From Acidobacteriota bacterium (GTDB lineage Bacteria; Acidobacteriota; Polarisedimenticolia; J045), in assembly GCA_046331425.1 (NCBI GenBank), contig JAXLQU010000002.1, positions 6,398-70,397 on the forward strand: a stretch of 64,000 nucleotides of DNA. Direction: 5' to 3'. Shown here in pieces: positions 23,940 to 26,699 of this stretch. How positions within the stretch are numbered: position 1 is the first letter of the stretch; each line of letters opens with the position of its first letter. The notes under the pieces are model-generated. The model did no database searches. It saw only the letters and a list, made by a program, of their open reading frames with translations, and was not told where the DNA came from. The translations under genes and the position numbers were made by a program.

Positions 23940-26699
23940 GTGACCCAGAAACGCAGCGCCGGTCCCACATCGACGACTCCGCCTTCGGGCCGAGGACGAG
24001 AGTGGATCGGCGGCCGATTCGTCTCTCCCATGCAAATCACAGGAGATGCAGAGCCGTATCGGCCCACATGCGTGGCGTGGATCGAGTTGCCTGAAGAGGT
24101 CGTGGTCGCGTTCGACCTTTGCCAACCTGACGATGCCTGTGAGGCGCTGGGCAAGGCACTGTTGCAGGCGATTCGGAATCCACTCGTAGGCCGACCACGC
24201 AAACCGCAGCGAATTCGCGTGGCCGACGAACACCTTGCCGTCGAGGCCAAGCGCGTGGTGGGCGAGCTCATCCCGGTGACGATCGCCGCAACACCGGAAC
24301 TGGAAGTGCTCGCAGCCGCGATGCTCGGATCGGTCATGAACGACTCTGCCGAGGAGTCCACCGAGGAGCCTGCGGGTTACTTGGGCGGCGGGCGTGTTTC
24401 GCACGACGCAGTGTCAGAACTGTTTGACGCAGCAGATGATCTCGGACTCGCCGCCCCTTGGACGATCGTGGGCGATCAGCAGTTACTCCGCCTCGATATC
24501 CCCGCACTGGGTGTCGAGGGGGCGTGTGTCTCAATCATCGGGGCACTCGGTCAGACTTTGGGTTTGTTGATTTTTCCTTCGCATGCTCGCTATGAGGCGT
24601 TCGAGAGAGTCGCAACACGGCCGCGGCGCAAATCGTCTCGCATCGATCTAGGCACGAGCTGGTTGTCCTTGACTCTGGTCTCTCGTGAGGAGTTACCGCA
24701 CGCATGCCGTCGCGAAATCATCGAGCACGGCTGGTCTCCGGCGGACGCAAGCCGTTTCCCTCAGGTCGAGCACTGGACTCGTGACGGCATTCTCGAGCCG
24801 CCGTCGGAGAGGGATGTTCGCATCGTATCCGCATGTGCAGCCTCGCTCTCTGCTTTCTTTTCGAGGAACCGAGAGGCGCTCGAGTCGGGAGACGTCGAGC
24901 CGATCTCTGAGTCGTACGACGATGGAACCGGCTTGATCGTTCGATTCACCATGCCCTATGAGGCGTTCTCGCTGTTCGATGACGCACATGCAGTTCCGGT
25001 CCCGAGTGAAGCGTCGCGGCGCTCGCGCAAGAGCCGCAACGATCGATGTCATTGCGGCAGTGGAAAAAAGTACAAGCTGTGTCATCGCGACGAGGATCGG
25101 TCACGAGCATCGGGAGTGATCAATTTTCCCGCCAGGCCAGTTTTCACTGGAGCGCAGACTCGCGCCTTGCCAGAGCCGCCACCCGGTTACGGTCGAGACG
25201 AAGTACCGGTGCGAGAAACGGGACCTATCGAGGTTCCGAAACCGGTTCCAACGCCAGGCCGCAATGACCGCTGTCCATGTGGGAGCGGCAAGAAATACAA
25301 GCACTGCTGCCTGCTCTCTTCCGAGACAACCGAGTTCAAGCGGCGCCAGGTCCATCGTGCAGCCGAGGAAGTCAGCGTCGCCGCCGCGAAGTTGATCACG
25401 CGGCTCGATGTTGCGGATCCTGTCCGAACGCAGGCTGAGGAATTCTGGGAGATCGCCTTGAACGTGGGGATCGACCTGGACGATAGCCCCGAACAGGCCT
25501 CGGTCTACGAGCTCATGGCGCCACTGTTTCTGTCGTGGCTGGTTTATTCGTTCCGGCCACTCGTCTTGCAGGAGGGGTCGAAACGCAGGCGTCGGCGCAA
25601 GACTGCCGCCGAGTTGTTGCTGCAGCAAGAGGGGAAGCGGTTGGACCCGCTACAGGCGAAGTATGCCCAGAGCGCACTAGCCAGTCCGCTTTCGTTCTGG
25701 ATCGTCGAGCAAATCACGCCAGGCACGTCGATCGAACTCAGAAGCGCCTTCACCAATGAGCGCACGCGCGTGACCGACACCCTTCTGAGTCAAGACGTTC
25801 GACGTGGTGAGGTGGTGTTTTCACGCGTGGTCGCGCTCGATGGGTTCGCCGTGGTAGACGGCTGCGCTGGTATGAGGATTACCCCTGACTATCTCCCCTG
25901 GATCCTCGACCTCAAGTACGAGATTCACACCCGCGAGGGGGGCTTGACGCTTGCGATTGCAGATCGGTACCTGCAACGGTCGCTCCGGTTGTACTTCCAG
26001 ATTTGCGCCGACGTCATCACACCACGCATGCCCATCATGCAGAACACAGATGGCGAACTGCTCGTACCGGTCGAGATGAGGTTTGACCTCACCATCCCGA
26101 TCGAGGAGGCGTTCGAGAAGCTCAAGACGCTTGCACTCGACATCGGATCGCTCGACGACCTCGCCAGCAACGAGATTCGGCGCGCACCGGACGGATCGAT
26201 TCGCGAGCTCACGCTGACCTGGGCCAAGCGCGGCAACAATATGCACAGTAGCTGGCAGAACACGTCGCTTGGATCGATCAGATTGAATCGAGGCAGCATC
26301 CACGCGGAGGTCAACTCGCATGAGCGTGCACGCCTCCTGCGTCATGAGATCGAGGCGCGGCTGGGTGAGGCCGTACGCCACAGGGCAAGCGGAATCCAGA
26401 GCCTCGAACGTGCGCTCCAAGACTCGATCGGTACGGAAGTTCCTGCAGCCGAACCAAGCGAGGATTTCGCCGAGGTGCTTCGCGAGATGAAGCGACAGCA
26501 CAGCGAGAGTTGGGTCGATCAGAAAATCCCGGCGCTCGGCAACCTGACTCCACGCGAGGCTATGCACGAACCGCGCGCCCGTGAGCGACTCGAGGCGTTG
26601 CTGATGGAATTCGAGTGGCGCACCGAGCGGTCCGGGTCCGACAGAACGGGATTCGATCTCGACTTGATCCGAGAGCGATTGGGATTGAATCCGTCTTGA
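23940..26699 (+). CDS. Large hypothetical protein with two SEC-C zinc-binding motifs and a DUF2384-like C-terminus (possibly PRiA4b-ORF3/IS1096 passenger-like)
   Basis: [16 protein letters not shown] and [16 protein letters not shown] (SEC-C signature). C-terminal [29 protein letters not shown] resembles the Xre/MbcA/ParS toxin-binding (DUF2384) fold. Family assignment from memory, not searched. Confidence 0.55.
   Translation: [919 protein letters not shown]

Follow-up and report, generated by a model that had tools for sequence, protein, structure and literature searches.

We analyzed a 64,000-nucleotide stretch (hereafter, the window) of contig JAXLQU010000002.1 from an Acidobacteriota metagenome-assembled genome (MAG; GCA_046331425.1), in which a large gene encoding a protein with SEC-C motifs (23940-26699, plus strand) stands next to a CRISPR (clustered regularly interspaced short palindromic repeats)-Cas locus of type I-G. 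The product is a member of a catalogued, uncharacterised protein family, and is unusual in retaining a second SEC-C knuckle. On balance, our analysis favors the reading that this multi-domain protein, which would carry a gene-fusion seam and act as an adaptor, has no functional tie to CRISPR and was placed at its present site by rearrangement. The gene and the parts of its product are:

23940-26699, plus strand: SEC-C family gene, 919 codons open from a GTG, stop codon at 26697-26699.
24000-24833, plus strand: N-module, two alpha/beta domains, DUF6930 (residues 21-124, nt 24000-24311) and DUF7309 (residues 160-298, nt 24417-24833).
25038-25085, plus strand: SEC-C knuckle 1 (residues 367-382), counterpart of the C-terminal knuckle in stand-alone short N-forms.
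25242-26696, plus strand: C-module (residues 435-919), with long helices, a small OB/cold-shock-like barrel (25689-25856), an alpha+beta domain (26070-26396), and a helical DUF2384-like end (26505-26606).
25263-25310, plus strand: SEC-C knuckle 2 (residues 442-457), counterpart of the N-terminal knuckle of stand-alone C-forms and of the single knuckle of the main fused family.

The window has a G+C content of 63% and spurious long open reading frames (ORFs) are numerous in it; this gene, however, is genuine and under purifying selection, not a chance ORF. The ratio of nonsynonymous to synonymous substitution rates (dN/dS) against its two closest relatives is 0.23-0.28, more than 260 homologues of the 919 amino acid protein were found at E ≤ 1e-3 (among the scored candidates), and an exhaustive HMMER search returned 764 cluster representatives at E ≤ 1e-30. 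NCBI holds a 100% identical protein of 889 amino acids (P0001), annotated from an Acidobacteriota MAG, which begins at an internal ATG (24030). We prefer the 919 amino acid model because the motif REWIGGRF (residues 20-27), conserved across the family, is encoded 5' of the annotated ATG, as it is 5' of the called starts in the two closest relatives. The open frame, the homologues, the dN/dS values and the Pfam matches all agree with the initial annotation of the window, which had been made from the sequence alone and had proposed a large 919 amino acid ORF with two SEC-C copies.

The SEC-C assignment was confirmed by Pfam scan (PF02810, 59.6 bits against a cut-off of 20.4, E = 2.5e-16), which found two stretches; the metal-ligand patterns of the two knuckles are C-H-C...C-H and C-P-C...C-C. 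NCBIfam matches were confined to the knuckle (19-47 bits against cut-offs of 68-267). The N-module was recognized as DUF6930 (38.8 bits) and DUF7309 (34.7 bits; Pfam cut-offs of 27), and both domains were found in all 33 family members examined. In the precomputed Pfam list, PF25948 (DUF7986) is present in most homologues but not in the window protein or its two closest relatives. The initial annotation had also described a C-terminus resembling DUF2384 (PF09722, Xre_MbcA_ParS_C). In this protein the match falls short (12.2 bits, E = 0.19, below the cut-off of 24.5), although 15 of the 33 family members match the domain (E ≤ 1e-3) at the equivalent position of the alignment, and among them protein P0010 (27.1 bits) exceeds the cut-off. 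PRiA4_ORF3 (PF07929) gave no match in the window protein even at E ≤ 1 and none in the 33 relatives at E ≤ 1e-3, so the analogy with IS1096 passenger proteins drawn initially has no basis here.

The family has the order DUF6930, DUF7309, SEC-C and C-terminal module, and occurs mostly in Acidobacteriota, Myxococcota and Nitrospirota. The window protein aligns over its full length to family members (32 or 102 in the two alignments), with invariant columns throughout. Three architectures were found among the 764 clusters: full-length proteins of ~800 amino acids, N-module-only proteins of 350-480 amino acids, and C-module-only proteins of ~480 amino acids. With the ~800 amino acid proteins, which carry the DUF6930, DUF7309 and DUF7986 domains and the names "SEC-C domain-containing" or "YecA family" (Acidobacteriota, Myxococcota, Nitrospirota and Binatia), the window protein shares the N-module at 47-57% identity, the order of parts and the C-terminal helical motif. 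It differs from them in lacking, like its two closest relatives, the PF25948 call, in a C-module that is nearer to the stand-alone C-forms, and in the second SEC-C knuckle, which is found only in the window protein.

The short forms suggest how the double knuckle arose. The C-only proteins match query residues 435-916 starting at their own residue 2-9, and open with a SEC-C knuckle. The short N-forms, found on three metagenome contigs, stop just past a SEC-C knuckle, and the tail of one of them closely parallels knuckle 1 and the following tail of the window protein. Since an N-module ending in SEC-C and a C-module starting in SEC-C each stand alone, the double SEC-C can be read as a gene-fusion seam. 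Consistent with this, the window C-module scores 220-257 bits (32-36% identity) against stand-alone C-forms and 148-162 bits (28-30% identity) against the C-parts of the main fused family; the N-module, in contrast to the C-module, is typical of the family. Knuckle 1 sits in an alignment segment that is missing even from the nearest relatives. From these comparisons we infer that a short N-form and a SEC-C-bearing C-form were joined end to end to give the clade of the window protein, and that the window protein keeps both knuckles. No adjacent pair of split N-form and C-form genes was present in the few loci with short forms.

The AlphaFold2 model of the protein (103 sequences; mean predicted local distance difference test score, pLDDT, of 80) shows an N-module of two well-defined alpha/beta domains (pLDDT mostly >90), a low-confidence linker of ~80 residues (model residues 325-403) that holds knuckle 1, and a C-module with long helices, a small five-stranded barrel, an alpha+beta domain and a terminal helical bundle. 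The two knuckles lie ~60 residues apart on a linker predicted to be disordered. A Foldseek search of the model against the Protein Data Bank (PDB) and viral models returned nothing at E ≤ 1e-3, and the barrel has a weak resemblance to cold-shock domains (Foldseek). A sequence-profile search of the PDB gave matches to the knuckle only, in YchJ and SecA (E = 7e-9 to 5e-8), no catalytic motif was recognizable in the window protein, and a literature search on DUF6930, DUF7309 and DUF7986 found nothing.

The knuckle offers the clearest comparison with proteins of known function. Its CxC-x8-9-C(H/C) pattern is essentially identical in SecA, AscA/YecA and YchJ, and in SecA it stands on a flexible or disordered tether, as in the model of the window protein. 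Beyond this ~20-residue knuckle the proteins are unrelated, the window protein having no SecA ATPase, UPF0149 or NTF2-like domain; furthermore, the knuckles of the window protein are internal and not terminal. SecA's metal-binding domain (MBD) binds SecB and ribosomes (bioRxiv 10.1101/613315), and AscA/YecA uses its MBD as SecA does, its other domain being a chaperone (bioRxiv 10.1101/2020.07.21.215244). The lack of a catalytic motif, together with knuckle docking on a flexible tether in SecA and AscA/YecA, makes a non-enzymatic adaptor the most likely mechanism by analogy. The soluble, multi-domain protein would be a docking factor or adaptor, in which the tethered Zn/Fe knuckle or knuckles would anchor it to a cellular partner, while the N- and C-modules would bind a family-specific ligand; this would be a protein or, via the OB-like barrel, possibly a nucleic acid.

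We next consider the surroundings of the gene, which comprise the following features:

22954-23676, plus strand: decayed partial adaptation module, with the cas1 3' end (~161 codons, 86% identical to the intact copy at the amino acid level), cas2 interrupted by a frameshift and truncated near codon 61, ~22 bp of leader sequence and one degenerate repeat (23641-23676).
23677-23701, no strand: left junction, the 25 bp that separate the degenerate repeat from the block.
23702-26808, no strand: 3.1-kb block, comprising the upstream intergenic region, the SEC-C gene and ~110 bp downstream; nothing else in the window is homologous to the closest relatives' loci.
26809-27271, no strand: 463 bp of non-coding sequence separating the block from cas4-cas1, which has no counterpart in the relatives' loci and matches neither Pfam nor Rfam.
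27272-29295, plus strand: intact adaptation module, with a cas4g/cas1g fusion (27272-29008) and cas2 (29005-29295); Pfam Cas_Cas4 and Cas_Cas1, and CRISPR_Cas2.
29497-31899, plus strand: CRISPR array of ~33 repeats of 36 nt (ATCTCCGCGTTCGAAAGAACGCGGCCCCATTGAAGC), with the leader at 29296-29496.
32407-39975, plus strand: type I-G effector genes 3' of the array, namely cas3 with a C-terminal HD domain (32407-35523), cas8g (within 35109-36497), cas7g (36494-37786) and cas5/6g (37783-39975).

The block is defined by comparison with the two closest relatives of the protein (74% and 69% amino acid identity), which are represented by four contigs from other samples. In blastn searches, these contigs (L081-L084) match the window only at 23702-26808, with 75-83% identity, and the 5' neighbors of the gene in them encode a Zn-dependent alcohol dehydrogenase, an FG-GAP protein and short-chain dehydrogenases, with no cas genes. 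On the left, similarity fades within the intergenic region, 25 bp past the degenerate CRISPR repeat; these 25 bp (23677-23701) occupy the position of a first spacer and therefore mark the left junction. On the right, similarity stops abruptly at 26808, 110 bp past the stop codon and within what may be a convergent ORF in the relatives, of which the final ~61 codons remain in the window at 26633-26815. Neither terminal inverted repeats nor a target-site duplication was found around the block, and no transposase, integrase or recombinase was found in the block or among the scanned ORFs of the window.

The neighboring CRISPR-Cas system is type I-G, as the Cas4-Cas1 fusion, Cas3 with a C-terminal HD domain, Cas8g, Cas7g and Cas5/6g are all present; relatives of the fusion are named Cas4g/Cas1g by NCBI. 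That the SEC-C gene lies between a cas remnant and the intact adaptation module had been noted initially, and the same arrangement is reproduced in a second assembly of this organism (GCA_964611105.1). The description of the region as a duplicated leader needs qualification: the duplication exists, but it is mostly cas1-cas2, with only ~22 bp of leader-proximal sequence. The duplicated segment (22969-23676) is ~90% identical to 28538-29187 plus 29475-29532, and a 286-bp deletion in the remnant took the end of cas2 and most of the leader. The best non-self Cas4g/Cas1g among 5.8 billion proteins is 70% identical to the intact copy; with an amino acid identity of 86%, the remnant is therefore an in-lineage duplicate and not part of a foreign locus. 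ORFs in 20200-22950 and 26809-27271 have no Pfam match and no similarity to the intact Cas proteins, so that the cas remnant is confined to 22954-23676.

Gene order also differs from that of related type I-G loci, in which it is cas3-cas8g-cas7g-cas5/6g-cas4/cas1-cas2, with cas5/6g at most 20 bp before cas4/cas1 in the two loci that reach upstream. In the window, as opposed to loci L166 and L168, cas4/cas1-cas2 and the array precede cas3-cas8g-cas7g-cas5/6g. Since the adaptation module and the array stand before the effector genes, the locus has undergone permutation in addition to its partial duplication, and one of the breakpoints holds the SEC-C block. The permuted order and the partial duplicate at 22954-23676 suggest a tandem duplication followed by deletions. 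We propose that a 3.1-kb chromosomal block was trapped between the decayed cas1-cas2-repeat duplicate and the intact type I-G locus, and that this would have occurred during a lineage-specific rearrangement of a locus that was also otherwise rearranged.

Array spacers had no match to the block or to any of the fetched loci beyond chance 16-17-mers, Rfam had no match in 20000-32500, no promoter-like site was found in 23500-27400, where terminator-like sites occur at chance level, and no coding sequence was detected in the 570 bp 3' of the SEC-C gene.

Four further observations concern the CRISPR locus and its relatives. First, the longest cas8g ORF (35109-36497) overlaps the 3' end of cas3 by ~415 nt; the gene caller of the other assembly begins cas8g at the cas3 stop (324 amino acids), which is probably the true start. 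Second, repeats near 29637, 29782, 30146, 30356, 30568, 30996 and 31133 have 1-nt deletions (CCCATGAAGC against CCCATTGAAGC) or a 3' truncation, with a spacing of 65-68 nt. Over 7.3 kb, the alignment of the second assembly with the window contains 61 gap openings, and long-read indel errors are therefore as likely as true repeat decay. Third, the ~2.7 kb directly 5' of the remnant (20200-22950) shows shifts in the frames of third-position G+C content (GC3) and may hold decayed genes. Finally, the related locus L168 (7756-13172) carries type III-A genes (cas10/csm1, csm2, RAMPs and a csm6-like gene) between the I-G cas4/cas1 and cas2, a hybrid I-G/III-A locus that shares one adaptation module.

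To place the gene in the context of its family, we surveyed the neighborhoods of homologues from individual look-ups, from 63 metagenome loci obtained with an N-module-only profile and from two genome-scan loci, which together yielded 59 non-redundant loci of the family and 430 kb of flanks; 33 of the loci have at least 3 kb on one side. A first scan of genome collections was swamped by matches to the SEC-C motif and gave few true loci; it was repeated on metagenomes with the N-module-only alignment. All-against-all clustering of neighboring ORFs in the 59 loci revealed no conserved partner gene. In a Pfam census of the 150 nearest ORFs, no family occurred more than three times (rve three times, phage integrase twice, kinases twice), with single HsdM, DarT and AbiEii-like matches alongside DapB, an aminotransferase and ABC transporters. 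The family also differs in this respect from the Xre/MbcA/ParS antitoxins. Although the last ~35-50 residues (ending ...LEALL) align to the toxin-binding domain of these antitoxins in about half of the family members, the window protein is below threshold, has no helix-turn-helix domain and is about six times larger, and no RES, MbcT or ParT-type toxin gene or other conserved partner stands beside family members in the 59 loci.

The initial annotation had offered a mobile passenger that disrupted the locus as one explanation, and we consider it unlikely that the 3.1-kb block is itself a mobile element, or arrived on one, that inserted just after the first CRISPR repeat. The block is indeed discrete and has other neighbors elsewhere, its left junction lies 25 bp past a CRISPR repeat, and integrase/rve genes occur among the family neighbors. 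In addition, the C-module has distant homologues that travel with transposons. Using tblastn with the C-module lacking the knuckle, we found homologues on 64 plasmids, mostly of Alphaproteobacteria (22-28% identity over 70-92% of the query), and a profile hidden Markov model of the C-module matched six plasmid proteins at E = 1e-33 to 1e-138. Except for a Legionella protein, the six carry no SEC-C, and one is annotated as DUF2384. In five of the 12 plasmid loci examined, the gene starts inside the 3' end of a serine recombinase gene (tnpR), and a Tn3-family tnpA is annotated beside four of these five (S. meliloti pSmeSM11a, S. fredii, Sphingobium yanoikuyae and Agrobacterium vitis), whereas the R. 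leguminosarum plasmid locus has the tnpR overlap only. The coupled pairs lie at:

L155 5189-7335, L159 3641-5571, L160 2692-4778, L164 2684-4607 and L158 3684-5607: hypothetical C-module homologue of ~450 amino acids, translationally coupled to the resolvase of a Tn3-family transposon with an overlap of 4-17 nt.

The tnpR overlap beside Tn3 tnpA on plasmids indicates that the C-module is genuinely associated with mobile elements, though not in the window copy, and the resolvase coupling of the SEC-C-less homologues suggests that mobile elements were what the C-module originally served. The passenger idea thus finds a counterpart in these distant homologues, which are Tn3 passengers, but not in the PRiA4/IS1096 family nor in the gene analyzed here, which has no tnpR-coupled start beside a Tn3 tnpA. 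The passengers themselves, such as WP_012881183.1 of pSmeSM11a and WP_122129175.1 of Sphingobium pF1, are homologues whose similarity covers 70-92% of the C-module (tblastn E values as low as 1e-14; profile hidden Markov model, E = 1e-33 to 1e-44), yet have no SEC-C knuckle and no N-module, share 22-26% identity, and are coupled to a serine recombinase that is absent from the window. The tnpR-coupled homologue is present in several copies per Sinorhizobium meliloti genome. A second link, istA/istB of the IS21 family of insertion sequences within 0.3-1.5 kb of family members, was seen in four unrelated loci, at L087 10973-13347 and L088 9715-12041 (full-length members) and at L154 2877-5172 and L163 5036-7262 (C-forms). 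This proximity may simply reflect variable regions. In the two full-length loci the IS21 elements directly adjoin the gene, with AbiE, resolvase, McrB, VapBC and HicB genes also nearby. Other plasmid homologue loci lie among toxin-antitoxin genes.

What tells against an insertion is that neither the block nor the scanned ORFs of the window hold the enzymes, and the block lacks the terminal repeats and target duplication, of a transposed segment; that the closest relatives hold the same block in an ordinary chromosomal setting; that its left edge fades gradually in the intergenic region and is not sharp; and that searches of IMG/VR viral contigs and GenBank phages yielded no member of the family. 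The part of the initial proposal that stands is a discrete block with unrelated neighbors in relatives, and the evidence supports displaced DNA only in the sense of a rearrangement breakpoint.

It is similarly unlikely that the gene is a stand-alone anti-phage or defence-island gene, found near CRISPR-Cas since defence genes cluster. The closest parallel is Rugutis, a single-gene antiphage protein of 359 amino acids from a lactococcal plasmid, with an N-terminal SEC-C followed by a novel fold without a relative in the PDB (PMC11381338). This is the layout of the stand-alone C-forms, which at ~480 amino acids are longer; the likeness is one of layout, homology is not indicated, and Lactococcus was not among the ten most frequent organisms in plasmid searches with the C-module. 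Some family loci adjoin AbiE, McrB, VapBC, HicB, HsdM or DarT genes, and the family occupies variable regions without a fixed neighbor. On the other hand, many family loci have housekeeping neighbors, no defence family recurs among the 150 neighbors, and in a PADLOC census of them no defence system recurred and none of the models matched by at least two ORFs was a Cas model. PADLOC matches to the window protein itself cover the knuckle only, and it has no recognizable effector domain.

A more far-reaching proposal, which we regard as quite improbable, is that the C-module (DUF7986-like plus DUF2384-like, ~450 amino acids) is a hitherto overlooked accessory factor of mobile elements that acts together with the serine recombinases of Tn3-family transposons, for example in resolution control, addiction or an anti-host function. 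The chromosomal SEC-C proteins, the window protein among them, would then be domesticated fusions, and the position of the block 25 bp past the repeat would be the footprint of recombination involving this activity and not a random breakpoint.

The other explanation offered initially, an uncharacterised CRISPR-associated accessory gene, did not survive the survey, and recruitment to the type I-G adaptation module, for instance to regulate spacer acquisition, is very unlikely. The gene is intact and under purifying selection, and in both assemblies it shares the strand of cas4-cas1 and ends 570 bp upstream of it. However, the flanks of the block are breakpoints and not an operon junction, and the closest relatives (69-74% amino acid identity) have metabolic genes upstream. 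In tblastn searches with six Cas proteins of the window against the 59 family loci, the only matches were to the contig of the same organism, and a repeat-spacer scan of these loci found only the array of that organism; CRISPR-like k-mer signals in L120 and L122 proved to be a 42-bp tandem repeat. Conversely, the SEC-C gene is absent from all three related type I-G loci. With no cas gene or array in the 59 non-redundant loci (0/59) and no SEC-C gene in the related I-G loci (0/3), we conclude that this is not a CRISPR accessory gene.

Lastly, a mis-assembly joining unrelated pieces at repeated cas sequence is scarcely credible: the source is a MAG with a 0.7-kb repeat at 90% identity in the region, and the contig of the second assembly begins just 5' of this repeat, but the repeat copies differ by 10% and a 286-bp deletion and are therefore not collapsible duplicates, and the independent GCA_964611105.1 (L085) spans both block junctions through cas4-cas1, the array and cas3 at 97.5-99.7% identity, its order of remnant, SEC-C gene, cas4cas1, cas2, array and cas3 being the same, which excludes a mis-join.

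Some points weigh against the reading we favor, a family protein with a fusion seam and an adaptor role brought to this site by rearrangement. The contigs of the closest relatives all end 430-625 bp 3' of the gene, and the fusion seam is based on bit-score differences, not on a phylogeny. The mechanism is drawn by analogy only, as the protein has no sequence or fold relative of known function outside the 20-residue knuckle, and YchJ, a redox-sensing transcription factor (PMC13377102), shows that SEC-C proteins also serve unrelated roles. In the survey, the ORF caller was crude, sometimes chose the wrong strand in GC-rich DNA and missed the L087 resolvase, so that counts of non-Cas neighbors are approximate; the tblastn screen for cas genes used type I-G proteins only, and for distant cas types it rests on Cas1/Cas2/Cas3 similarity and the array scan.

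The remainder of the window is ordinary chromosome that carries a 2-oxoacid dehydrogenase operon and genes for Ser/Thr kinases and TPR proteins. A 1226 amino acid TPR-CHAT (caspase-like protease) protein upstream of the CRISPR region adjoins an S41 peptidase on the opposite strand (12162-17154), and the two could be a signalling or defence-type pair. A tandem array of ~11 copies of a 14-nt unit (CAAATGCGCCTCAC and variants; 18465-18620) lies between an extracytoplasmic function (ECF) sigma-factor gene (17892-18428, minus strand) and an unannotated 438 amino acid ORF (18877-20193), which has a weak PADLOC match to a type II restriction endonuclease (E = 8.5e-4).

For CRISPR biology, the SEC-C gene carries little weight: it is a bystander, and catalogues of cas accessory genes should not include it. 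The locus beside it illustrates a type I-G system in which cas1-cas2-repeat was partly duplicated within the lineage and the gene order is permuted. For the family, the SEC-C-less relatives tied to Tn3 resolvases on plasmids of rhizobia, acetic acid bacteria and sphingomonads give a testable functional handle in culturable hosts. Together with this, a clean modular description (N-module-SEC-C, SEC-C-C-module and their fusions) makes a very large uncharacterised family more tractable.

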